Shown: positions 7,783 through 42,641, counted from the stretch's first letter. The stretch: 64,000 nucleotides of DNA from a virus (IMGVR_UViG_3300026549_000045:1-64000); one strand, 5' to 3'. A program made the numbers and translations. Notes: a model not told the origin generated them from the sequence alone.

Positions 7783-7814
7783 TTTGGTAGTAACAAAAAT
7801 AATAATTACTTTTG
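7783..7814 (+). promoter_or_regulatory. Promoter
   Basis: TTTG...TACTTTTG. Confidence 0.7.
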
Positions 7815-7847
7815 CGTCAGATTTCAAACAAAGCTACACGTTAGAAT

Positions 7848-8354
7848 ATGGAAAAAGTAAAAGTCACTCAGGACGTTGTTTATCAGTTTATCACCGATCA
7901 CAATGTCAATCTCTCGGGTATCGCCCGCGAGATGCAGGCCAACCCTACGCTTGTTGCCGGATGCTTCAAGCGCAATGCCGACCGCAACGGTCGTCCTCGC
8001 CACTTCACCGCTCAGACACTGCCCCGTCTGAACGAAGCCCTCGATAAGTTTGCTGCTAACATGCGCCAGAGTGTTGTGGCCTTTGGTAGCGAGCAGACCT
8101 ACACCAACAACCGTGGTGTGACATACGACCCTGGCACCATACCTGCCGTCAAGCAGTTGTCTCAGTACTTCAACCTCACCCAGTTCATTGTGCGCATCCT
8201 CGGCTGGACAGAGAACAAGAAGAACCTGACATTCTCGTCGCCAACGGCTAAGATGTTCGGCTGCATCAGTCAGGATGATGTCAACCGTATCAATGCCGAA
8301 CTGCTTGCCGTGTCTGGAGTGCTCTCCAGCTATGAGGTAGTTGAAGATAGGTAA
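7848..8354 (+). CDS. Putative HTH DNA-binding protein
   Basis: VNLSGIAREMQANPTLVAGCF helix-turn-helix-like segment. Confidence 0.55.
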   Translation: MEKVKVTQDVVYQFITDHNVNLSGIAREMQANPTLVAGCFKRNADRNGRPRHFTAQTLPRLNEALDKFAANMRQSVVAFGSEQTYTNNRGVTYDPGTIPAVKQLSQYFNLTQFIVRILGWTENKKNLTFSSPTAKMFGCISQDDVNRINAELLAVSGVLSSYEVVEDR

Positions 8355-8562
8355 TATTTAGCTTCACGTTTGATGCTTTAAAGCAATCAGCAATAACCCA
8401 GTGCGGGAATATTTGCTGATTGTTTTTTTTTGATTTCTCTACGAAAACATACATTCCAACAAATATTTTTTTTTTGATTCATGCACCTATCGCGACGCGC
8501 ACCCCGCGCCTCGCTGGGCGGCGGAGCCTGCGGATCCGCCGTTCGGACTGGCTGCAAATATG

Positions 8563-8604
8563 CTGCAAAGGGTGCAAAGGTGCAAAGGGTGCAAAGGTGC
8601 AAAA
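8563..8604 (+). repeat. Tandem (G)GTGCAAAG repeats
   Basis: CTGCAAAGGGTGCAAAGGTGCAAAGGGTGCAAAGGTGCAAAA, five TGCAAA cores. Confidence 0.85.
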
Positions 8605-8699
8605 ATAGGAAAGCCCACCAACACCCGCACGATTATAAATAAGGTACGCGATGGAAAGCACAAAAAATGCTGCAAATAACAAAAAAAGTAGTTCATAAA

Positions 8700-8731
8700 T
8701 TTGGAAAGTAACAAAAAAAGTAGTATCTTTG
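8700..8731 (+). promoter_or_regulatory. Promoter at the head of the early region
   Basis: TTTG...TATCTTTG. Confidence 0.75.
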
Positions 8732-8875
8732 CCAATGTCAGAACGACACAAGAACGGAAACAAACACTGACAAAGAGTTCTTTAACATACTGATACACCG
8801 CACCGCACAAACCGCAAATATCTTTGCAAGTTAGTGTGAAGAGCACGAAAATTCTACCACTTAGTAGTGGGCACG

Positions 8876-9354
8876 TGTGCCCAAATCAGAAAAGCAAGAG
8901 GTCGTGTTGATATAGAACTTTGCCTACATTGGTATGGTTTGTAAGGTAGTCCTGCATTGGTGGGTAGGTGTATGAGTTGAACAACGGCTGCAACCTATGG
9001 ATGTAGTGTATAGGTACGCAAATGCCCGTAAAACGGCTTAAGCGGTAAAACGCTATCGTGTACCCAGTGCTATATCTGGCGGACTAATAATGTGGTCGGT
9101 TACAAACGAAAGGGAAATGCTATATAGCCGTATGCTATACAGCCCTGCGCCTGATGGGGCATAACGGAACGTATTGGATAGTTCCGGAGTGGGCATACGT
9201 ACAAAGTGGATAGGCCCGGGTAGGAACTATAGACGCCAGTCTATAGGTAGGTTTGGAATGAACGACTACCGGATTTATCCGGCGGAAACTATAGGCCTAT
9301 AGAGAAAGTGAGCACCATCAGGTGCAGGGAGTTCGGCACTCCCCTATGGGCACA
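8876..9354 (+). ncRNA. Large structured non-coding element (~480 nt)
   Basis: ORF-free. Nested helices 8876-8883/9347-9354, 8937-8944/9100-9107, 8947-8952/9081-9086, 8954-8960/9064-9070 and 9143-9157/9315-9329, plus local hairpins. Confidence 0.6.
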
Positions 9355-9392
9355 ATGATAGCAATGTCGCTATCAGGTAAAATCTTACAATT

Positions 9393-10022
9393 ATGGCAAA
9401 CAAGAAGAACGTTCCCGCACAGAACACAAACAGTGCAGAGTTATCAGTGAATTTCGACCTGTCGTTTACCGCTTTCAAGAAGGCACTCGGCGCAGTGTTT
9501 AACGAGACTTGCAAGTTCAAGCAGGCTTGCCGTGTGTTCGACGGCATGGGTGCTTTCCCCGTACCTACCGGTAAGAACTCCACTATCCGCTTCGACCAGC
9601 TTGTCGGCACTATCGGTGTGCAGTTCAAGGGCGGACGACTTGACCCCGAAAGTCTGAAGAGTGCATGGAAAGTCATGACCGCTGACAACTACATGGCTCT
9701 CTATAAGAGCGTACCAGGCTACGAGGCCGTAGAGGGCGATGAGGAGAAGTCACGCAAGGTCTATGTGTGGAATGAGGAGAAGTCGCAGTATGACGGCGTA
9801 TCAGTGACCCGCATCGTGGCCGTGGAGAAGTGGAACGCAAGCCTTATCCTTGAGGGTATCTTGCAGAGTGCTTTCACAGCCCGCTATATCGACGAGGCAG
9901 CTAAGAGTCAGAAAGCATGGGACGAGTTCGAGGGCGAACTCTATGTCTTCGACAAGGTGCAGGACAAGGACGGCATCACTAACAAGCGCCACATCATCCG
10001 CAAGACACAGGTGGAGTTCTAA
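9393..10022 (+). CDS. Hypothetical protein, first gene of the early region
   Basis: 209-aa ORF with A-rich start context. Confidence 0.8.
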   Translation: MANKKNVPAQNTNSAELSVNFDLSFTAFKKALGAVFNETCKFKQACRVFDGMGAFPVPTGKNSTIRFDQLVGTIGVQFKGGRLDPESLKSAWKVMTADNYMALYKSVPGYEAVEGDEEKSRKVYVWNEEKSQYDGVSVTRIVAVEKWNASLILEGILQSAFTARYIDEAAKSQKAWDEFEGELYVFDKVQDKDGITNKRHIIRKTQVEF

Positions 10023-10137
10023 GGAACTCCCACCTATCCCCATCGGAGCCTGACATAGAGTGGAAACATGGCTATGGCGGTGGACTTGTCGGTGTCCACC
10101 CAGGCACAAAGTATAACATCATAACATCGTGAAGACT

Positions 10138-10560
10138 ATGAGCGAAAGAACGACAGCGCAGATCTGCGCCCGCATGAGAGAAATCAGCGCAAGCAGAACG
10201 TTCCACCATCAGCGCAAGCAAAGGGTGGAGAAGTGTGAAACTATCTATGAGCAGACTATGGTGGTCAAGGGTGGGCGCAAACCCAAGCACTTTATGACCT
10301 CCAAGCAGCTTATCGAAGCCTATGAGCAGGTGGAGTGGGAGACAGAGAACCGCCACCAGATGTTCGAGGCTGGCAAGGGTACACGCTTCACTAAGCGCAC
10401 TCATGTGAACAACGGAGCCCACTATACGAAGAGTGGTGGAGTGACTACGACCAAGCGACCTACCGCTCAGGGCGAGGTGTGCAGCGTGGGACGTGTTATC
10501 ACGGTCAAGCGTTTCAGCAACAGTCGCCTGACGTGTGTATGCAAGAGCATCATGTATTAA
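10138..10560 (+). CDS. Hypothetical basic protein
   Basis: ORF. Confidence 0.65.
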   Translation: MSERTTAQICARMREISASRTFHHQRKQRVEKCETIYEQTMVVKGGRKPKHFMTSKQLIEAYEQVEWETENRHQMFEAGKGTRFTKRTHVNNGAHYTKSGGVTTTKRPTAQGEVCSVGRVITVKRFSNSRLTCVCKSIMY

Positions 10561-10724
10561 GCAACAACTAACCGGCACTATCAGTGACGGCTGAGAGCAC
10601 AGATATAGCCAGACACTTGAAAGCTCACCTCTATAGGACTAAGGCGAGGTGGTAAGCGGAACGTGCAGCGCGAGGATCGAGACGCTATCAGCAGGAAGCA
10701 GTGTGCCATAAAAGCAATAATCGT

Positions 10725-11135
10725 ATGAAGAACGTGAGATTTATCGCAGGCATCGTCCTGCTAAGTATCGGCGGCTGTGCAGTAGCTATGGCTGCTGGTG
10801 GTGCTAACGACGTGAACGTGACCTTTGGTCAGGCTCTGACTATGGTGGGTGGCGCGGCAGCTGCTATCGTTGGCAGCGCGTGGGTGCAAGGACTGACAGT
10901 GCGCCAGTTCATCGGACGCATACTCTCTGAGGAGCATGAGCCATCGAAGCACGAGACTATCAAGCATCGTATGGGTAGGCGGAACTATGGGCAGGCAGCC
11001 GTATTCATCGGAACGGCTTGCCTCTATATGGGCACACCGCAGCAATGTGACGAACTGTGCGATGACCTGTGGCATCATGGGCAGCAGGCACACGTACAGG
11101 TGCTGGACGGTAACGAGACATTCGACATTCTATAA
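10725..11135 (+). CDS. Hypothetical membrane protein
   Basis: Two N-terminal hydrophobic segments. Confidence 0.65.
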   Translation: MKNVRFIAGIVLLSIGGCAVAMAAGGANDVNVTFGQALTMVGGAAAAIVGSAWVQGLTVRQFIGRILSEEHEPSKHETIKHRMGRRNYGQAAVFIGTACLYMGTPQQCDELCDDLWHHGQQAHVQVLDGNETFDIL

Positions 11136-11156
11136 ATCAAATCAAATCTTACAATT

Positions 11157-11360
11157 ATGGCAACAAAGAGACAACAGGCGATGATTATCGCTATGGCCGC
11201 TATGGTCGGCACAAGTACGGACATCATCGACCGCAACGCAGCAGCCGCTGCCTTGCGAGACATGAGAAGTGACATCGGTCACGACAAGACCTGCAGCATA
11301 CAGGAAGACCCCTTCGACTTTTCCTATACGTGGGATCCTACGGACGGGGATGTTGCATAA
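11157..11360 (+). CDS. Hypothetical protein
   Basis: Start context AAATCTTACAATTATGGCAA is identical to that of the 9393 gene. Confidence 0.7.
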   Translation: MATKRQQAMIIAMAAMVGTSTDIIDRNAAAAALRDMRSDIGHDKTCSIQEDPFDFSYTWDPTDGDVA

Positions 11361-11380
11361 ACTATCGGGAGGACTGAACA

Positions 11381-11704
11381 ATGAAGAAGATTGAAGTATT
11401 GGAGTGGGGGTTGCAGCATATTGCAGCCAACTATAAGATGGGTGCAAGTACCGAGGATTTGCAGAGCGAGGCAGAGGGTTGCATCTATGTGACCGAAGAG
11501 CATCCAGACGTATCGCCCGCACCTGTGAACGACGTGCAGATGCTATGCGACGACCTGGGCATAGATCGTGCCTATATGAAGACTTCGGAGTTCGGCATCG
11601 AGGTTACGCTGGATTGGCAGTGGTCTGAGACTATCGGACAGGAAGAGTACACCCATACTGGGCATGAGATGTGGAAGCGCTTCGGCGTGGAGATTGGTTC
11701 TTAA
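11381..11704 (+). CDS. Hypothetical protein
   Basis: Packed ORF. Confidence 0.7.
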   Translation: MKKIEVLEWGLQHIAANYKMGASTEDLQSEAEGCIYVTEEHPDVSPAPVNDVQMLCDDLGIDRAYMKTSEFGIEVTLDWQWSETIGQEEYTHTGHEMWKRFGVEIGS

Positions 11705-11716
11705 TCGGCTATGACT

Positions 11717-12259
11717 ATGGCAACGAAGAAGCAGGCGGGGACTGAGCGCCCCTATACGTGGTACGAGTTCCTGAGCATCATCAGGAACATCGTGGAAGAA
11801 CAGAAGATTGTGATGCACGACGAGTTGGACTACTTTAATGCTAATTGGGAGCAGCAGGATAAGCCTATCGACATAGGTGTTTGGGACTGGCACCTTACCA
11901 CGAAGACGGACTTCGGTGGTTGTGAGGGTGTCTATACGGACTTCTATGCTCATGTGGACTACAACGACGTGCGCCATGTGTTTACAGCTAAAACGCTGGA
12001 CGGCAGCCGTGAGGCATACGTGAAGATGCACGAGTTTGCAGCCCGTGTGTGCCTGGTGGTACGTGACTATGTGAAGGAGCATGAGGACGAGTTCAACTGG
12101 ACTGGCTTTGATGTGGGCTATTACAAGGACGGGGAACGTGTGACCTATATGCTGGCCCACAAGCACGAGAACGCTATGAAGTATGCCTTGGAACTGAAGC
12201 AGAAAGACGAAAGGGCATGGATACGTGACAATGCAGAACGAAAGTATGAGGAGGTATGA
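11717..12259 (+). CDS. Hypothetical protein
   Basis: Packed ORF. Confidence 0.75.
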   Translation: MATKKQAGTERPYTWYEFLSIIRNIVEEQKIVMHDELDYFNANWEQQDKPIDIGVWDWHLTTKTDFGGCEGVYTDFYAHVDYNDVRHVFTAKTLDGSREAYVKMHEFAARVCLVVRDYVKEHEDEFNWTGFDVGYYKDGERVTYMLAHKHENAMKYALELKQKDERAWIRDNAERKYEEV

Positions 12260-12519
12260 AAAAAAGAATTTATCCCTACATGGCGGCTATGATGCTGGCT
12301 ATGGCGAGCGACCCGTATTTCTCTTTGGGACGCTCTAAGCGAACTATGAGCGAGGCAGAGCGCAAGCGTTACGAAGAGTATAAGCGCGAACGTGCTCACC
12401 GACTGAATCCTGTGGATATGTCGGAGCATGAGTTTATTATCAAGGGTGAGCGTATCATGGCGCATGACAAAAAGACCGCCAAGAAAATCTATGCTCGCCG
12501 ACATAGTGGTAAGAAGTGA
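12256..12519 (+). CDS. Hypothetical protein
   Basis: ATGA overlap with the previous gene. Confidence 0.7.
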   Translation: MKKRIYPYMAAMMLAMASDPYFSLGRSKRTMSEAERKRYEEYKRERAHRLNPVDMSEHEFIIKGERIMAHDKKTAKKIYARRHSGKK

Positions 12520-12549
12520 AACATTAACAACTTAAAACAACGTGGAATT

Positions 12550-12672
12550 ATGAAAGCAAGAACTATTAGCATGAAGAAAGTGCGCAAGGCCGTCAAGGTG
12601 GCCTATGGCGTGAGTGACAACGATGCTCGCGAAATGGCGGGTATGTTTATCAACATGAGAAAAGCAGCATAA
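12550..12672 (+). CDS. 40-aa small protein ending in -RKAA (not in the ORF track)
   Basis: MKARTISMKKVRKAVKVAYGVSDNDAREMAGMFINMRKAA; fills an intergenic gap. Confidence 0.6.
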   Translation: MKARTISMKKVRKAVKVAYGVSDNDAREMAGMFINMRKAA

Positions 12673-12704
12673 GTATTAACAGTCAAAATTCGGAGGACGA
12701 AAGT

Positions 12705-13631
12705 ATGACACAGAATTTACAGGGTGCCGACCTTATCGGCAAGACGATTGTAGTGAATGGCGGAAACGTCAAGTATGTAATCAAGTCAGTGGACGGCGAC
12801 AAGCTGATGACCGACTTCATCATGGGCGACCGCACTATGCCCTGCCCAGTGCCTATGAACCAGGTGGAGAGCATGGTGGAAGCAGGTAAGTGGACTATCG
12901 AGGGGAGTGAAGAGCCTACGGCTACCGAGACCAAGGCAGAGGACGTGAAGCCTGAAGCTACCGCTACCGAGGAAGCTACCGCCGAGGAGCCTACCGCAAC
13001 TGAGGAGGTGGAAGAGGTTATCGACGAGCCAGAGCCTGCGCCTGCTCAGACCGTCAAGATGAAGACGGAGATGCCGAAGGACAAGGCGGAGGAAAAGGCG
13101 ACGAAGAGCAAGCCGCAGAAGCCGCAGACCAAGGCGAAGTCAGACACCAGCCATCAGCACTCAGCCCTCAAGTATGAGACCTATACCACAAAGAAGGGCA
13201 AGACGGGTGCGAAGATCGTTGGCTTCAACGAGACGGATGCTGCCTATCTGGCTGGTCCCGAGCTGCACGGCTCTAAGGCGTGGGAAAACGACAAGCAGGG
13301 CAACAAGACGTTCTGCCTGCTGTTCAGCCATCGCTATGCCAAGGCTGCAGAGGACGTATGCAAGGCACTGAACGCTGGTAAGAGCGTGGCAGACTGCCAG
13401 GCTATCATTGACGGATGCACCGAGGAGCGTGCCCAGCGTCGCGAGGAATGGCGAGCAAGACGTGACGCACGCGACAATGCCGCTACCACCGAGGGCGAGG
13501 CTACCGCCAAGACTGAGAAGCTCTATACCGAGGCAGAGGTGCGCAAGGCGTTCGCTACACTGGCCGAGGCAAGCGGTGTGGACGTGAAAGAGTTTGAGCC
13601 TATCATCGAGGCTATGCGGGCAGCTGCATAG
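12705..13631 (+). CDS. Hypothetical protein with acidic, Thr/Ala-rich linker
   Basis: 308-aa ORF with EEPTATE repeats; ends -RAAA. Confidence 0.8.
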   Translation: MTQNLQGADLIGKTIVVNGGNVKYVIKSVDGDKLMTDFIMGDRTMPCPVPMNQVESMVEAGKWTIEGSEEPTATETKAEDVKPEATATEEATAEEPTATEEVEEVIDEPEPAPAQTVKMKTEMPKDKAEEKATKSKPQKPQTKAKSDTSHQHSALKYETYTTKKGKTGAKIVGFNETDAAYLAGPELHGSKAWENDKQGNKTFCLLFSHRYAKAAEDVCKALNAGKSVADCQAIIDGCTEERAQRREEWRARRDARDNAATTEGEATAKTEKLYTEAEVRKAFATLAEASGVDVKEFEPIIEAMRAAA

Positions 13632-13650
13632 CTATAACGACCACGGATTG

Positions 13651-13698
13651 CACGGATGACACGGATTGATATCTGTGTTGTCTGTGCTATCTGTGTGA
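13651..13698. repeat. REP-like inverted array of 9-bp CACRGAT units
   Basis: CCACGGATTGCACGGATGACACGGAT followed by ATCTGTGTTGTCTGTGCTATCTGTG; related copies near 6688, 7464, 14186 and 22053. Confidence 0.7.
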
Positions 13699-13737
13699 CA
13701 ACTAAGCAGAATTACAAACATCAAAAATCTTACGATT

Positions 13738-14184
13738 ATGGGACTGGATTTAAGTGCTATCAGAGCAGCTGCTGCAAAGATGAAGCAGGAGCAGGAACAG
13801 CCAAAGACGAACACGAATAGCACGAATAACACGAATAGTGCTAAAACAAAGGCTGAGCCTAAAGCTAAGGCTGCGCCTAAGAGTGCGCCGAAGACGGACA
13901 GCCCGAAGACTAAGGGCGGTGCGAAGTACGTTATCCCTGCCGAGTTCAAGCAGGCTATCGAAGACCACTTGAAGTCGAGGGCAGACATGAAGGAGAAACT
14001 ATCGAAGAAAGGCAAGTCGATTGACGGCTGCTGTGACTATATATTCGACGTGATGCGCAAGCGGGCTGAAAAGGAGCGCGGCGGCAAGAGCGCCGTGGGC
14101 CTCTATGCCAACCCTGACGAAATCTTCGGTCTGGCTTGTCACTACTATGACGAGACGGACGAAGCACTGAAAGCGGAGAAGTAA
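13738..14184 (+). CDS. PcfK-like (AcrIIA9-related family) protein
   Basis: FKQAIEDHL..KSIDGCCDYI..DEIFGLACHYYDE, immediately upstream of a PcfJ-like gene. Confidence 0.8.
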   Translation: MGLDLSAIRAAAAKMKQEQEQPKTNTNSTNNTNSAKTKAEPKAKAAPKSAPKTDSPKTKGGAKYVIPAEFKQAIEDHLKSRADMKEKLSKKGKSIDGCCDYIFDVMRKRAEKERGGKSAVGLYANPDEIFGLACHYYDETDEALKAEK

Positions 14185-14217
14185 ACCACAGATTTCACAG
14201 ATTAAACGGATTTGATT

Positions 14218-15534
14218 ATGGCAAACGTATCTTTTGAACAGCGTTGCATCGCTATCAACAACACGCTAAAAGGACTGCCTAAAGGGCGGACGGAGAAGGC
14301 CATATACCACCATGTGTTTGAGCCTGGACTTATCACCCGTATGTATCGCCGTCGCAAGGTGTTCTATTGCAGCGAGTGTGGCAGCGAAATCGGCGTATTG
14401 ACGCAAAAGGTGTGTCCTGTGTGTCATGCCAAGTGGAAGTCAGAGACTACCGAGGACAGAAAAGGAACAGAGCGTTACTACCACATGGAACTGGAAGCCA
14501 AGGGCGATATCCAGCTATGCCGCATCTACAGGGTGGAGCGTCACACATGGTATGGCAAGGCGGCCAGCATCAATGTGTGGGAAGTGGAGCGCATCATGTA
14601 TGCACCGACTGGCGAGCGCAGGGTGTTCTCACGTGGCATACAATGTATGTCGTGGTACTATGACGCTTTCTGCTATGGCCCTATCAAGTTGAAGCGTGAG
14701 TATCGGAACATGGGCAACAGTGCTGAACTGCGTTATAATCTTGACATGAGCAGCTGGCACATAAGGAGCCTGACGGAGCAATGGCGCTATAAGGACGTTC
14801 ACTCGCTGCTGAACCTCTTTCATGGCGACAGCAGTGTACTGCGTGTGATAGCCTATCCGTATGCCGAGACTATGCTAAAGACGGGACAGGAGAAGTTGTT
14901 TAAGTATCTGGTCAACGAGATACGGCTATTGCCCAGAGGTGCTGAGCACGCCATCAACATCTGCACCCGTAACCACTACAAGATTAACGACCCGTCGATG
15001 TGGCTCGACCATTTGGAGATGTTGTGCTATCTGCGACTCGACACGCACAATGCCCACTATGTATGCCCTGATGATCTGAGCAAGGCGCACAGTGAGTTGC
15101 TGGTGCGTAAGCGCAAGGTGGACGAGAAACGCAGGGCAGAACGAGAACTGAGGGCAAACCAACGGAAACTGAAGCGTATGGAGAAAGAGAAGCAAAGCTA
15201 TGCAGAGCGTTGGGGGAAAGCCCTGGAGATTTCACTAAAGGGCAAGAACCTGAGTGTAAGACCCCTGCAGTCGGTGGACGAGTTTGCAGCAGAGGGTGCA
15301 GCCATGCACCATTGTGTATTTGCCAACGAATACTACAAGAAGCCGAACATGATACTGTCTGCCAAGGATGGCGACGGCAACCGACTGGCGACTATCGAGT
15401 ATAATATCCGCAAGGGTACGATTGTACAATGCCGTGCGGCCTGCAATCAGGTGCCAGCACGTGACGCTGAAATCCGACGGCTGATAACAAGACATCGGAA
15501 CGACTTCCAGCGGCTGCTAAAGGCCGCAGCCTAA
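14218..15534 (+). CDS. PcfJ-like protein
   Basis: CSECG/CPVC Zn motif; WLDHLEML, CPDDLSKAH, EGAAMHHCVF, LATIE, VQCR. Confidence 0.85.
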   Translation: MANVSFEQRCIAINNTLKGLPKGRTEKAIYHHVFEPGLITRMYRRRKVFYCSECGSEIGVLTQKVCPVCHAKWKSETTEDRKGTERYYHMELEAKGDIQLCRIYRVERHTWYGKAASINVWEVERIMYAPTGERRVFSRGIQCMSWYYDAFCYGPIKLKREYRNMGNSAELRYNLDMSSWHIRSLTEQWRYKDVHSLLNLFHGDSSVLRVIAYPYAETMLKTGQEKLFKYLVNEIRLLPRGAEHAINICTRNHYKINDPSMWLDHLEMLCYLRLDTHNAHYVCPDDLSKAHSELLVRKRKVDEKRRAERELRANQRKLKRMEKEKQSYAERWGKALEISLKGKNLSVRPLQSVDEFAAEGAAMHHCVFANEYYKKPNMILSAKDGDGNRLATIEYNIRKGTIVQCRAACNQVPARDAEIRRLITRHRNDFQRLLKAAA

Positions 15535-15557
15535 TTGATAATTGATAATTGACAATT
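15533..15557 (+). repeat. 7-bp tandem repeat AATTGAY
   Basis: AATTGATAATTGATAATTGACAATT. Confidence 0.8.
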
Positions 15558-15572
15558 AAAACCGTTACAACA

Positions 15573-16619
15573 ATGGCAAAGAAACAATTTACTATGAACG
15601 ACTCGCAGAAGGAGAAGTATGCGGAGTTGTTCGAGGCTGAACTGAACGCTATGGAGCGTAGCGACTGGACGCAACCGTGGGTGTCGCCCAATATGGGTGC
15701 GCCGTGTAACCTGTACCGCCGCCGTCATCCCTATCAGAAGAGCAACGCTTTCTGGCTGGCTATGCTGATGCAGGTGAAGGGCTGGAGCACGCCCTACTTC
15801 CTGACGAAGACGGACTTGGTGAACGAGGACGGCAGCCGCAAGTATGACGGTCTGCAGGCTAACTGCACGATGGTGACTGACGAGAACGGTATGCCGAAGT
15901 TCGACGACAACGGCTGTCCAGTGATGGAGTACGAACGGAGATTCCCCGTATTCTTCTACAAGCCTATCTACAAGGACAAGGACGGTAACACCGTGAGTGA
16001 AGAGGACTATCGGGCCATGAGCGACGAGGAACGTCAGGAGTTGAAGGTGTTCTTCTACCGCACTCACTACCTGGTGTACAATCTGGACCAGACGAACTTC
16101 AAGGAACTCTATGCCGACGACTACGAGGCAATGGTGGCGGTGCCTGAGCACGACTACCAGACAGGCCAGCGTGACGAGGTGCTGGAGCGGATGATCGCTG
16201 GCGAGTGGATTTGTCCTATCCACTTTGGCGGTCACTCGGCTCACTACAGTCCTATGGAGCACCATATCCGACTGCCGGAGCGTTCGCAGTTCCTGGGCGA
16301 CGCGAAGTTCTATGCGGTGGCTCTGCATGAGATGGCGCACTCTACGAAGAAAGACCTGCGCCGTGAACTGGACGAGCCGTATGAGGAGTTCGTGGCAGAG
16401 CTGACGGCAGCGTGTGTATGCAGCCGTCTTGGTGTCGGCAAGTTGCTGGACGAGCAGCATATTGCCTATGTGGCCTCGTGGCGCAAGGCTCTCCGCGACG
16501 ACAAGGACTTCATCCCTCGCGTCATCGACCATGTGCAAATGGCCTCTAACTTCATCTTCAACCGCTACGATGCCGTGGCGAAGAAGATGGAAGGTCCGAA
16601 GCTGCTGCAAGCAGCGTAA
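15573..16619 (+). CDS. ArdC-like antirestriction protein (ssDNA-binding domain + zincin-like metallopeptidase)
   Basis: WTQPW..PCN..Y..SN, YLVYNLDQT, AHYSP..HIRLPERSQF, HEMAHST, YEEFVAEL, AYVASW. Confidence 0.85.
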   Translation: MAKKQFTMNDSQKEKYAELFEAELNAMERSDWTQPWVSPNMGAPCNLYRRRHPYQKSNAFWLAMLMQVKGWSTPYFLTKTDLVNEDGSRKYDGLQANCTMVTDENGMPKFDDNGCPVMEYERRFPVFFYKPIYKDKDGNTVSEEDYRAMSDEERQELKVFFYRTHYLVYNLDQTNFKELYADDYEAMVAVPEHDYQTGQRDEVLERMIAGEWICPIHFGGHSAHYSPMEHHIRLPERSQFLGDAKFYAVALHEMAHSTKKDLRRELDEPYEEFVAELTAACVCSRLGVGKLLDEQHIAYVASWRKALRDDKDFIPRVIDHVQMASNFIFNRYDAVAKKMEGPKLLQAA

Positions 16620-16677
16620 CACTATCGAGGGGTCGTCGCCTGACGGCTCCTCAAAATCTATCAAAAATAATCCGATT

Positions 16678-16935
16678 ATGAATGCGAAAGAACGCTATTG
16701 GATGACGAACCTGCTGCACGCCAAGGTAAAGAAGCATGGCAGGGAGTTTAACGTATTCCATAACCAGCACGACAAGGAGATGCACGTTTTGGAAACGGGA
16801 GTGAGAAAGACTATTGGTCGCCGCGAGTTCCGCAAGTGGATTAAACAACAGGGCGGCATCTGTCTCAAACCTCTGAAGACCGGCGAGTATATCGACGTGA
16901 ACGGAGAGCGACAGAAACTTTGGGGTATTGAATAA
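16678..16935 (+). CDS. Hypothetical protein
   Basis: ATG after a hairpin at 16627-16652. Confidence 0.65.
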   Translation: MNAKERYWMTNLLHAKVKKHGREFNVFHNQHDKEMHVLETGVRKTIGRREFRKWIKQQGGICLKPLKTGEYIDVNGERQKLWGIE

Positions 16936-16955
16936 ACTTAAAATGACATACGGCA

Positions 16956-17177
16956 ATGGCAAAACAAGAAAAAGAATTCTTCCCTATTACGAGTGTAAGC
17001 AGGGATGATTTAGAAGAAAGAGGCTTCGATACAAGTGAGGTGGACGATGACACTATGGAACGTCTTGCCTCGAAGATGAGCGATGACTACTGCGAACAGA
17101 TGTTCTGGACATCTATGGAGATTATTGCTGAGATTATGGGTATTCCCAAGAGAGAAAAGAAGGAGGACGAAGAATGA
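16956..17177 (+). CDS. Hypothetical acidic small protein
   Basis: Packed ORF. Confidence 0.7.
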   Translation: MAKQEKEFFPITSVSRDDLEERGFDTSEVDDDTMERLASKMSDDYCEQMFWTSMEIIAEIMGIPKREKKEDEE

Positions 17178-17815
17178 ATTATTATGTGATTGACGATGTG
17201 AAGACCAAGGTGTATAGCATCTTCGGGTCTTCGTATAAGAAGGTCCCTAACACTCCCGCTATTGTGGCCGTGAGCGACTACAACAAGAAGAATATTGAGA
17301 AAGGCTGTGAATTTACGACCGACGGCATTGTCTATGCAGACGGCACTTTCTGCTTCGGGCCGAGTAAGAGGATTGTTTCCTACGGTTCATGGAGAGAGGC
17401 AACACCTGAAGAGGTGCAACGGATGACCGACTGTGCGGCAAGTGTGAACCTGGCCTATATGACACTGGAGCAGGAGCACAAGAATATCTGGACTAAGCAG
17501 ACGTGGACTAAGACCTACGAGGCTCTGGCCTACATCTCAACGGAAGCTATGCGCTTCCGCTTGAATGGTGAGATTGTCGGCTGGAAAGAGGTTGAAGCCT
17601 ACGAGCCTGCAGAGGGTATGCACTTCGCCTGGTACCACGACAACGGTTATAGTTATTTGGGCGTTGATCCTGCGAAGAAAGAAGACTGGATAGCTGCTGT
17701 ACGCAAAATCAAGAAAGTGTGGTATGGCAATTTGTACGGCATCGTGTATCTGGAGAATGGCGTTATCGACGTTCGCCAGTGCAGCAAGAGATATAGTGAA
17801 GTGAGTAACACATAA
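17174..17815 (+). CDS. Hypothetical protein
   Basis: ATGA overlap with the previous gene. Confidence 0.75.
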   Translation: MNYYVIDDVKTKVYSIFGSSYKKVPNTPAIVAVSDYNKKNIEKGCEFTTDGIVYADGTFCFGPSKRIVSYGSWREATPEEVQRMTDCAASVNLAYMTLEQEHKNIWTKQTWTKTYEALAYISTEAMRFRLNGEIVGWKEVEAYEPAEGMHFAWYHDNGYSYLGVDPAKKEDWIAAVRKIKKVWYGNLYGIVYLENGVIDVRQCSKRYSEVSNT

Positions 17816-17828
17816 ACGAGTAACGACT

Positions 17829-18188
17829 ATGGCAAGAGTTGTTTATATACTCGACGTAAAGAACGAGTGGTATGAGCCTGGCAGCGACGTGAAGAACAAC
17901 AGAAACTCGCTGGCCTATCGCATCTTCGAGTCTGAGGATGTGGCAAAGGGTTATATGGAGAAGGTGATTGCATCCGCCATGAGTGGTGACAGTGAACTGG
18001 AGCCTACCGTGACGGAGAAGCGCGACAAGAAGGGTATGCGGAGTATTGAGGTGGAGTTCCCCTGTGGCAAGGACATTATCGCAGGGACTGAAACCTATAC
18101 GACGATATCCCTGAGTAGGAGAACGGCGCAGGACGATGTGCCGGAGGATCCGTTTGAAGACATCATGAACGAGATTTATATCGGATAG
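17829..18188 (+). CDS. Hypothetical protein
   Basis: Packed ORF. Confidence 0.7.
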   Translation: MARVVYILDVKNEWYEPGSDVKNNRNSLAYRIFESEDVAKGYMEKVIASAMSGDSELEPTVTEKRDKKGMRSIEVEFPCGKDIIAGTETYTTISLSRRTAQDDVPEDPFEDIMNEIYIG

Positions 18189-18191
18189 ACT

Positions 18192-18581
18192 ATGGGACAA
18201 TGCTATTCTATAGAAATCAAGGCGAGGTTCAGGGATGAGGATGGTGCAAAAAAGGCGCTGCAGGCCAAACTTGACAGGCATGAAGAGGAGCACGTTGCTT
18301 ACAATCTTCCACACTTCACGGAGGAACTCGGTATGTCAACAGACAACCTGCACGACCTGATGGGCATATTCTTCGGCGGCTGGAAGGGAAAGCTGGAACC
18401 TTCGACCACCGACGACTGGGAGTATGCCGACTTCGACGCCTCCTATGGCTGGGAGAGTCTTATGATGGATGCCTTCGAGACAATCGCACCTTATCTGGCT
18501 GACGGCTCTGAAATTAAAATCTGGCCCGATTCCGGCTGCGACCACGGAACGGTCAGGAACGGGAAATGCAAATGGGCATAA
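18192..18581 (+). CDS. Hypothetical protein
   Basis: Packed ORF. Confidence 0.7.
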   Translation: MGQCYSIEIKARFRDEDGAKKALQAKLDRHEEEHVAYNLPHFTEELGMSTDNLHDLMGIFFGGWKGKLEPSTTDDWEYADFDASYGWESLMMDAFETIAPYLADGSEIKIWPDSGCDHGTVRNGKCKWA

Positions 18582-18598
18582 CTAAAACGAATGAGACT

Positions 18599-18988
18599 AT
18601 GGAGAAGAAAGATTTCTATGGCGACATCAGGAATCTGCACAAGGAGATTGTGGCAGAGATTGTGAAGCTAATGGTGGAGCATGACGTGACAGAGGTTGAC
18701 CTGCTCGGTAGTAGTGCCGACCACGCTTACGTTATTGGCGCACCCTTCGACTGGGATGTGGACTACATGGAGGCCGAGGTCTCTAAGGTGTACTACGAGG
18801 ACGGGCAGTTGGTGCTCGACGTTTGCTGGGACATTGACACGTTCGAGTTGGCCGAGCAGAACGAGAATGGTGACATTGGCGATGCCTATACAGATGTAAA
18901 GGCCAATGACTTCACCTGCATCAAGCCCTGTGCTGGCATTGATTCGGTGTATGAGAGTGTATGGCAAGTGTTGGAACAAAACAAGTAA
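18599..18988 (+). CDS. Hypothetical acidic protein
   Basis: Packed ORF. Confidence 0.7.
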   Translation: MEKKDFYGDIRNLHKEIVAEIVKLMVEHDVTEVDLLGSSADHAYVIGAPFDWDVDYMEAEVSKVYYEDGQLVLDVCWDIDTFELAEQNENGDIGDAYTDVKANDFTCIKPCAGIDSVYESVWQVLEQNK

Positions 18989-18993
18989 CCACT

Positions 18994-20115
18994 ATGACAC
19001 AGAAAGAGTATATCCAGATGGTGAACGAAGCGAAGCAACGGAGCTTTGAGTATTATGTGCTGAGCAAGCCGACTATCAGCGACGCGACGTTCGATGCGAT
19101 GGTGGACTGCATAGAGCTGGCGGAGTTGGAGCATCCTGAGTGGACGCTACCTGACTCGCCGACGCAGTGCGTAGGAAGCGACCTGTCTGGTAACGGCAAG
19201 CGACTGGTGCGTCACCGCACACCGATGCTATCGTGCCAGAAGGCACAGACAACAGAGGCGGTTGAGAAATGGATTGCCGCTACGGAGAAGAAGTTGAAGA
19301 AGCAGGACGCTGGCATCTACTACGAACTGGAATGGAAGTTGGACGGCATCAGTTGTTCGCTGGTGTATCAGGACGGCACGCTGATCAGCGCCGCTACCCG
19401 TGGTGACGGCAAGCAGGGCAGCGACTTGATGGAGCACGTGAAGATGATACCGACGGTGCCTATCACGATTACTGAAATGGGTAGGGTAGAGGTGCGCGGC
19501 GAGATTGTATGTCCCAAGTCTCACCTGCCGTTTATGTCAGAGAGCTATGCCGACTGCAGAAGTGCAGCAAGTGGCATCTGTGGCAAGAACTATGTGACCG
19601 CCGACACGACGCTGCTGGAGTTTGTGGTGTGGCAGTTGGAAGGCGACGACATCGGCACAGAGGCTTGTGCTATCGACATAGCCGAGGACTTGGGCTTCAA
19701 GACCTGTGGCTATAAGGGCTGCTGGACGCCAAATGTTATCAAGCGTCTGGGTGAGTTCGCTATCGAGCGTGACGCGCTGGACTGGCCTACTGACGGTGTG
19801 GTGGTGAAGATAAATACCAAGCCGCTGGCTGAGAGGATGGGTTATACCGACCATCATCCGAAAGGCTGCATCGCCTACAAGTTCCCACCGCAGAAGACGA
19901 CGACCACGGTAAGGCGCATAGAGATAACCGTTGGTGCTACGGGCCGTCGTACCCCTGTCTGCTGGTTTGACCCTGTGACTATCATCGGACGAACGGTGGA
20001 GAAAGCGAGCCTTGGCAGTGAGGACACGATGGAGAAACTCGGCGTCTATGAGGGCTGCACCGTAGAAGTGGGCCTGAGCAACGATGTGACGCCGAAAGTG
20101 TACAGAGTAATCTAA
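18994..20115 (+). CDS. ligA: Minimal NAD+-dependent DNA ligase (Ia + adenylation + OB domains only)
   Basis: YYV..PTISDATFD, PDSPTQCVG, KLDG adenylation motif, ATRGDG, EVRGE, DGVVVK, IAYKFP, VGATGRRTPV; ends at motif VI SNDVTPKV. Confidence 0.9.
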   Translation: MTQKEYIQMVNEAKQRSFEYYVLSKPTISDATFDAMVDCIELAELEHPEWTLPDSPTQCVGSDLSGNGKRLVRHRTPMLSCQKAQTTEAVEKWIAATEKKLKKQDAGIYYELEWKLDGISCSLVYQDGTLISAATRGDGKQGSDLMEHVKMIPTVPITITEMGRVEVRGEIVCPKSHLPFMSESYADCRSAASGICGKNYVTADTTLLEFVVWQLEGDDIGTEACAIDIAEDLGFKTCGYKGCWTPNVIKRLGEFAIERDALDWPTDGVVVKINTKPLAERMGYTDHHPKGCIAYKFPPQKTTTTVRRIEITVGATGRRTPVCWFDPVTIIGRTVEKASLGSEDTMEKLGVYEGCTVEVGLSNDVTPKVYRVI

Positions 20116-42204: not shown

Positions 42205-42641
42205 AGACACAGGTAGCCGCAGACTGAATGGATTTCCTGCGAAACTGCGGCGCACCGACAGCGGAGGGTGGTCTTGTTTATAGCACGTGCCAACATTTAC
42301 GGGCTATCGGCAAGTATCAAAAGACAGTTCAGAAGGTCGCGGGTTCGATTCCCGCCTTGCGTGCTAAGCAAGTAGTTCAGCTGGTTAGAACGTTTGAAGG
42401 TTGCAAAAGTTTGCAGGTTCGAGCCCTGCCCCGTCTTGGACGGGTGGCGGAAGTGGTAGACGCGGGTCTTTTTGGTAGATCTACTTATCGCAAAACAAAA
42501 AATGACGTTGCCGCACGACACTCATACGGAGAGGCCGTCGCCTCCCGAGAAGGATCTTGCTCTTGCTGAGTGTGGCAATGGTTCTTGCTTTTGTTCATGC
42601 CTTTGTCGCTGAAATCATCTGCCGTCGCCGGGCCTGTGTCT
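42205..42641 (+). ncRNA. ~440-nt structured RNA with two circularly permuted tRNA-like modules
   Basis: Closing helices AGACACAGG/CCTGTGTCT, GCAGA/TCTGC and GATTTC..GCGA/TCGC.GAAATC; T-arm > acceptor hairpin > D-arm modules at 42328-42398 and 42413-42464. Confidence 0.8.

Follow-up and report, generated by a model that had tools for sequence, protein, structure and literature searches.

A candidate family of large structured non-coding RNA at the head of the early operon of rumen Prevotellaceae phage-plasmids

The first part of an early transcript in a rumen phage-plasmid probably encodes a new family of large (approximately 600 nt), multi-domain structured non-coding RNA, which would act as RNA and may be matured at a tRNA-like end; we assign this reading a probability of roughly 0.55. 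We prefer it because of the conservation pattern, the covariation, the coverage by contigs from RNA libraries, the lack of an expression platform and the dispensability of the element in relatives. The DNA analysed (hereafter the window) comprises the initial 64 kb of an IMG/VR virus record with a length of 135,134 bp. From promoter to tail, the element spans approximately 600–620 nt, which is longer than the ~480 nt proposed by an earlier, sequence-only reading of this DNA; all of the sequence features named in that reading could be read from the window. The longest ORF on the + strand between 8737 and 9392 does not exceed 42 aa, in agreement with the ORF-free stretch claimed earlier, and the indels between clades are not multiples of three. 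The proposal of a novel large phage RNA was likewise borne out, there being no Rfam match, a covarying structure and RNA-library contigs that span the element. Large, intricately folded RNAs of bacteria and phages are rare, and the known ones include ribozymes, RNA-only cages and RNP scaffolds. The present element is new in sequence and fold, and it heads the early operon in a phage-plasmid whose host genus is ecologically dominant in the rumen.

The promoter (8700–8731, + strand) consists of a −33 TTTG box at 8700–8703, a 20-nt spacer and a −7 box, TATCTTTG, at 8724–8731. As read from the sequence, the consensus promoter noticed earlier is of the Bacteroidota type and not of the sigma-70 type, and both boxes are invariant in all relatives. 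Directly after the RNA, in every locus recovered, lies the first early gene (9393–10022, + strand), encoding a 209-aa protein that belongs to no Pfam or PHROG family. The AlphaFold2 model of this protein (pLDDT 81) gave no lead when compared with the PDB by Foldseek (best E 0.38), by VIA-align (best Z 3.5) or with the ESM Atlas (scores ≤0.80). Further genes downstream of the element code for a PcfJ-like protein and for one that matches a PHROG with the name 'anti-restriction protein'. Situated directly after the promoter, the element makes up the opening ~620 nt of the early operon, several genes of which are named or read as anti-restriction; that this promoter drives it is judged from where the RNA-library contigs start.

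Searches of IMG/VR, JGI metagenomes and GTDB genomes with the downstream protein and with DNA patterns of conserved blocks recovered homologues in three clades only, a set that leaves out contigs encoding divergent relatives of the protein (P0003–P0018; down to 51% identity). Clade A comprises the window, L002, L003 and L027; clade B comprises L004, L006 and L017, with an adjacent protein ~62% identical to that of clade A; and clade C consists of L018, a recombinant with an A-like 3′ part, a diverged 5′ half and an insertion of ~100 nt. All recovered homologues share the position of the element, with this promoter on one side and the 209-aa gene on the other. Pattern scans of IMG/VR with four different conserved blocks returned the same five contigs and otherwise chance matches only, the metagenome pattern scan added only clade C and duplicates, and protein-guided scans added one Prevotellaceae MAG contig. 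An uncultured rumen Prevotellaceae MAG has, among the contigs binned with it, one that carries a near-identical copy of the element; when ~800 sampled genomes from the family and genus of this MAG were searched with the core by BLAST, the MAG itself was the only one to match. No match was obtained by blastn of 8600–9400 against public phage records. The sequencing runs that contain the stretch are all from cattle or sheep gut or rumen material. The carrier is a narrow lineage of rumen Prevotellaceae phage-plasmids of cattle and sheep. A possible second copy of the element near 103.5 kb was rejected, the 11-nt match at 103561 being without other similarity around it.

Read from 5′ to 3′ on the + strand, the element begins with P1, a 5′-terminal hairpin (8736–8741/8767–8772) with a conserved A/C-rich loop of 25 nt, followed by D1, a clade-specific 5′ domain (8786–8979) with a long-range closing helix (8786–8799/8967–8979) and an inner helix (8842–8848/8902–8908). 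The 5′ half of the conserved core (8980–9113) holds invariant blocks across the clades. It is opened by the core junction ACAACGGC..CAA (8981–8993), after which come P2 (8994–8998/9010–9014), which pairs in all three clades, and P3 (9015–9019/9058–9062), which closes a three-way junction; inside this junction sit two invariant hairpins, the twins P3a (loop CGUAAAAC) and P3b (loop GUAAAA). P4 (9082–9085/9094–9097; loop AAUAAUGU) is followed on its 3′ side by the junction AAACGAAAGG (9104–9113). In the middle region (9114–9212), which holds the 5′ strand (9143–9157) of a 15-bp helix, clades A and C exceed clade B by ~55 nt (97 nt in A versus 43–44 nt in B). The invariant junction GG.CCGGGUAGG (9213–9224) lies 5′ of the hairpin P5 (9227–9234/9239–9246; 8 bp, loop GCCA), and beyond P5 a variable linker (9247–9294) contains the hairpin P6 (9269–9273/9278–9282; loop UUUA). 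At the P6 site, clade B carries a different hairpin, CCGCCA-GCAA-UGGCGG, and the insertion of clade C lies in this linker. The 3′ three-way junction (9295–9351) is composed of P7 (9295–9302/9344–9351; 8 bp), the junction AGAAAGUGA, the local hairpin P8 (9312–9316/9321–9325), which is kept in all sequences, and P9 (9327–9331/9339–9343; 5 bp, loop UUCGGCA), with 0 nt between P9 and the 3′ strand of P7. The tail (9352–9392) contains ACAAUGA, in which CAAUGA is invariant, the hairpin P10 (9356–9362/9369–9375), replaced in clade B by a shorter hairpin of other sequence in the same place, and an A/U-rich spacer to the start codon.

The blocks conserved at 100% are ACAACGGC..CAAC; GCCCGUAAAACGGC..AAGCGGUAAAACGCU; GGACU.AUAAUG..GUCGGU...AAACGAAAG; GG.CCGGGUAGG; AAGUGAGC; and GUGCAGGG.G.UCGGCAC.CCCCUAUGGGC.CAAUGA. 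Invariant blocks next to a protein with only ~62% identity, together with re-paired helices between the blocks, form a pattern that is typical of a functional RNA.

Covariation was present in P1, P3, P5, P9 and the D1 helices; the helices that we regard as supported across the clades are P1, P3, P5, P6 and the P7–P8–P9 junction. In the 3′ part, aligned with MAFFT, 26 pairs were 99.4% paired, versus 19–53% with slid partners; four pairs showed two-sided changes, and the covariation score was reached by one of 500 shuffles. The hairpin CTATAGAC-GCCA-GTCTATAG (9227–9246), singled out in the sequence-only reading and identical with P5, was confirmed with compensatory changes: three of its eight base pairs are changed on both sides, one of these within clade B, and all cells are paired. 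In P7, P8 and P9, 18 of 18 pairs are kept, with changes from A-U to G-C in P9, from U-G to C-G in P7, and from A-U to G-U and from C-G to U-G in P8. A covariance model of this 3′ junction found a single site in the window at 93.7 bits, the next best scoring 12.6. The stems of P1 read UGUCAG/CUGACA in clade A, GUUCC/GGAAC in clade B and UGUCACC/GGUGACA in clade C, every pair being kept, and anchored shuffles reached this at ~0.017 per clade. P3 pairs in every clade despite different sequence, with 5–7 bp in A, 9 bp in B and 6 bp in C (anchored shuffles 0.02, 0.006 and 0.04). P2 is paired in the three clades, yet no better than shuffles. The same was found for P11, a tentative long-range helix between a segment after P3 and a segment before P6, which pairs in all clades and exceeded shuffles only in clade C (10 bp; 19 of 5000 shuffles).

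The D1 domain is unalignable between clades. Within clade A, its 28 variable columns include three two-sided compensations, at 8790/8976 (C-G to U-A), 8811/8938 (A-U to G-C) and 8848/8902 (A-U to G-C), together with three wobble changes. The long-range pairs checked in D1 were all recovered (four of four) in the single-sequence MFE structure of L003, without alignment information, and in the ensemble of the window three of the four had P = 0.7–0.8, with 8811/8938 at 0.20. The variant with G at 8848 and C at 8902 co-occurs in RNA contigs of two other studies. The covariation rests on few independent events because there are only three clades, one of them a recombinant. We regard the comparative data as decisive for a real structured RNA.

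Folding energy on its own is weak evidence, barely above shuffles and not strand-specific. The MFE z-score of the window was −3.5 on the + strand and −2.1 on the − strand with 20 shuffles; with 40 shuffles, the + and − strands gave −2.4 and −2.3 in the window, −1.3 and −1.1 in clade B, and −2.7 and −2.8 in clade C. On the + strand, the advantage over shuffles (z −1.3 to −3.5) is thus slight and shared by the − strand. That reading had also offered a Frpo- or ssi-like element, which would fold in transferred single-stranded DNA as a promoter or priming site. The better-than-shuffled fold of the minus strand is in keeping with such an element, as is the context, which resembles a plasmid leading region with the PcfJ-like gene and the PHROG-named anti-restriction gene downstream. 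However, the element follows a normal double-stranded promoter and is then covered by RNA-library contigs, and its fold is multi-branched with invariant loops, whereas such an element would form a single long hairpin in which the −35 and −10 boxes lie. Moreover, G-U pairs, or changes that pass through G-U, are present on the + strand in P7, P8, P3 and D1; since a conserved G-U pair of the sense strand becomes an A-C mismatch on the template strand, this fits an RNA of the + strand. We consequently dismissed the single-stranded DNA element as scarcely credible.

A search of Rfam 15 with cmscan, covering families that include GOLLD, OLE, HEARO, raiA, RNase P, group I/II introns, tmRNA and riboswitches, found nothing in the region at gathering score. 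At E ≤ 10, cmscan of 8500–9600 against all 4227 Rfam families gave four weak matches, none of them credible: RefA9 and TCV_Pr, both upstream of the element start; DUF2693, at 13.8 bits against a cutoff of 81.3; and RNase_MRP, on the minus strand. The lack of a recognisable family noted by the sequence-only reading thus held. The match to the DUF2693 RNA motif (8777–8857; 13.8 bits, E 6.8) rests on ~20 nt, GUUCUUUAACAUACUGAUAC, which are partly conserved in clade B as well; probably, mobile elements of Bacteroidales have this leader or promoter-like string in common.

ROOL and GOLLD are structured RNAs of phages and prophages, ~600–800 nt long, located next to tRNAs and without known function, and ROOL was first found in cow rumen (PMC5737381; 10.1101/2024.12.08.627333). 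The element resembles ROOL (RF03087; RNA of ~580 nt) in size, in its occurrence in phages or prophages and in the rumen origin of all its carriers, a resemblance in kind only; and the tRNA adjacency of ROOL and GOLLD has a parallel in the tRNA-like junction in which the element ends. In contrast to both, the element has no sequence or structure match with them, belongs to the host phylum Bacteroidota, is found in three clades only and is the leader of a protein-coding early operon rather than part of a tRNA island. When searched alone at E ≤ 10, the ROOL model (gathering score 99.1 bits) had no match in the 135-kb genome; control genomes likewise gave none, so that the sensitivity of this negative is unproven. 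Strong divergence from a known large class, such as ROOL, GOLLD, RNase P RNA or group I/II introns, is a very improbable explanation for the element: its length of ~600 nt, its rumen phage source and its conserved 3′ and variable 5′ parts recall ROOL and GOLLD (PMC5737381; 10.1101/2024.12.08.627333), but no credible cmscan match emerged from the 4227 families, and neither did any from the ROOL model run on the whole genome. The element also interrupts no gene. In favour of a diverged known class, it contains CCGGGUAGG, which we take to be a string of E. coli M1 RNA. The RNA could have an unnamed entry in bulk catalogues of candidate viral structured RNAs (PMC10690425).

When Logan contigs from four rumen metatranscriptome runs (four studies) were placed on 7800–10800, each run had a contig with its start at 8747, 8749, 8753 or 8760, which is 16–29 nt downstream of the −7 box. 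These RNA contigs cover the element, and three stop within the 3′ junction, at 9337, 9316 and 9315, where no loose ends are seen. Assembled contigs cannot show RNA ends, strand or level, and we read these positions as a weak but consistent hint at a transcript that begins at the predicted promoter and takes in the element as a whole. No RNA contig lies on 8352–8746 or 9338–9384, and such holes in contig cover prove nothing about transcript limits; contig depths of 37 versus 5.8–7.9 (X15) and of 13.4 versus 5.3 (X17) are no proof of abundance. A second perfect TATCTTTG box is present at 8819–8826, inside the RNA and in clade A only, with no TTTG at the proper distance, and the RNA contigs start upstream of this box.

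A plainer possibility is that the RNA is no more than a long, stable 5′ UTR. A cis-regulatory leader is a serious rival, although we hold it to be rather doubtful: this riboregulator would sense a ligand, a protein or the host state and set read-through or translation of the 209-aa gene and of the genes behind it that are named or read as anti-restriction, perhaps via alternative pairings. It would explain why the element is always directly upstream of the same gene, on the same strand and with no terminator between them. The lack of a terminator also speaks against it: no intrinsic terminator was found on the + strand within 8300–9600, and no expression platform, either as a terminator or as a conserved sequestration of the start region, was detected, the spacer and start region not being conserved between the clades. 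A riboregulator is further favoured by mutually exclusive pairings. The 15-bp helix 9143–9157/9315–9329, reported earlier with one G-U pair, is present in the window and competes with P8 and P9, and GUGCCC segments can pair either within P3 or with GGGCAC of the 3′ tail. The end-to-end helix of the sequence-only reading exists in the window as TGTGCCCA (8876–8883) with TGGGCACA (9347–9354); its 5′ strand is without a positional counterpart in clades B and C, where the sole GUGCCC segment is the 5′ strand of P3. Nor is the 15-bp helix conserved: clade B lacks it, and a 3-nt deletion truncates it in L003; it is retained in clade C, with the G-U becoming A-U, and the competing hairpin P8 is kept in all sequences. 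That the switch helices are not conserved counts against a riboregulator, as does the length, 600 nt far exceeding known leaders. The alternative pairings could act as a switch, but the comparative data call for none.

Relatives that lack the RNA bear on the same question. G794 and G795 are complete phage-plasmid records that carry a homologue of the upstream gene (46% and 29% identity, respectively). Their order matches that of the window, with a repeat array, an A/T-rich stretch, a promoter and a first gene of 207–210 aa, and their leaders are only ~50–100 nt long. Neither the RNA nor the 209-aa protein family was found in G794 or G795, and searching them with the 3′-junction covariance model produced no significant match. 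Because G794 and G795 keep the layout with short leaders and no RNA, the RNA is best described as a lineage-specific insert in the leader. Relatives thus run the same operon with leaders of 50–100 nt, which argues against a riboregulator; since they do so without the RNA, the latter is an added module that is not needed for basic control of the operon. In G794 (L052 1440–1500, minus strand), a CGGGGG-AUCGUUA-CCCCCG hairpin with the flanks AGGGGA/UCCCCU lies right after the stop codon of the first gene. This GC hairpin was considered as a counterpart of P9 within P7 and was rejected, scoring only 10.8 bits (E 0.73).

As claimed earlier, a T-arm-like GGGAG-TTCGGCA-CTCCC (9327–9343) abuts the closing strand (9344–9351), and all pairs of P9 are kept. 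P7 (8 bp) is stacked on P9 (5 bp, 7-nt loop) with no junction nucleotide between them, an arrangement like that of an acceptor stem and a T-arm in which all pairs are conserved. The tRNA-like processing end that the sequence-only reading proposed is plausible, judging from this stacked shape, but other marks of a tRNA are missing. In clades A and C the loop of P9 reads UUCGGCA, and in clade B AUCGGCA; with G at position 58 and a varying position 54, it departs from the T-loop consensus (U54 U55 C56 R57 A58), and the 3′ tail is ACAA or GCAA and not NCCA. ARAGORN found no tRNA or tmRNA gene in 8600–9500, and the Rfam tRNA and tmRNA models had no match in the element with cmscan at E ≤ 10. Elsewhere in the window and far from the element, an Rfam tRNA match of 32.1 bits is located at 42372–42430.

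Known tRNA-like structures include the tRNA-like domain of tmRNA, the YrlA Y-RNA-like RNAs and the mascRNA of MALAT1. Like these, the element has an acceptor-like helix with a 5-bp arm, capped by a 7-nt loop, stacked immediately upon it, and, as in MALAT1 with mascRNA, the tRNA-like domain is at the 3′ end of a long RNA. Unlike these, it is without the T-loop consensus and the CCA end, and no tRNA, tmRNA or YrlA model detects the domain. The element may be the second example of a long RNA with an end defined by a tRNA mimic. The c4 and CI immunity RNAs of phage-plasmids and satellites (P1/P7 and P4, respectively) are derived from leaders, are ~70–80 nt long and work as antisense RNAs whose targets lie on the transcript they come from. 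The element shares with c4 and CI its place in the 5′ leader of a phage-plasmid early operon and a tRNA-like shape, which is a candidate RNase P site, and differs from them in its length of ~600 nt. Complements of the conserved loops were searched in the genome, and only chance-level matches of 8–9 nt were present, with one 11-nt match at 103561.

Considering these results, we propose the following scenario. Host enzymes that process tRNAs may cut the RNA from the downstream mRNA, either at the tRNA-like junction or just beyond it, and the RNA may be released or stabilised through this 3′ junction. By analogy with ROOL and GOLLD, it would then work in its own right and in trans, as a stable scaffold, a decoy or a self-assembling RNA. 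It would act early after entry or in the plasmid state and would not be a simple on/off leader. A bolder form of this scenario, which we consider unlikely, is that the element is the first ornate large RNA of Bacteroidota phages, either a self-assembling particle like ROOL and GOLLD or a decoy or sponge against host defence, which the early operon would deliver before any other product and which host tRNA-processing enzymes would free at its tRNA-like end. The element is in any case a testable candidate for an RNA-based function in early infection or maintenance in Bacteroidota phages.

The region upstream of the promoter suggests a further role for the transcript. Two long T tracts (~8425–8475), a GC-rich palindromic block (~8487–8550) and five tandem TGCAAAG(G) repeats (~8558–8605) lie there, and 8400–8610 is a candidate origin, packaging site or operator array. 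At the same upstream position, G794 and G795 hold other repeat arrays, of the GACACCC type and of the CCGACC type with many short palindromes, and the IMG/VR contigs of both break inside the repeat arrays. Cumulative GC skew is lowest over a flat zone at 8.2–8.9 kb and highest near 72 kb, on roughly the opposite side of the 135-kb genome, and this pattern holds although the long ORFs taken as genes on either side of 8.5 kb are on the + strand. ColE1 RNA II is a structured transcript of ~550–600 nt beside an origin, and the element is of similar size and next to a putative origin. It could accordingly be a replication transcript, that is, a structured pre-primer or an origin-activating RNA as in ColE1 RNA II or the R-loop origins of phage T4, as the skew minimum and the repeats, T tracts and palindrome just upstream would allow. 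However, the skew switches at or upstream of the 5′ end of the RNA and not at its 3′ end as for RNA II, the skew minimum in relatives lies 1.2–2.3 kb upstream of the ATG, and relatives with the same layout of repeats and promoter lack the RNA. Unlike in ColE1, no antisense regulator similar to RNA I was seen, and an operon follows. A role as a replication transcript is thus improbable.

In addition, CTAT is strongly enriched on the + strand in 9000–20000 of the window, at 8–17 per kb versus 1–5 per kb before 9 kb, and ATAG is not enriched there (0–9 per kb). The enrichment of CTAT runs on through coding DNA well past the RNA, which itself contains four copies of CTATAG.
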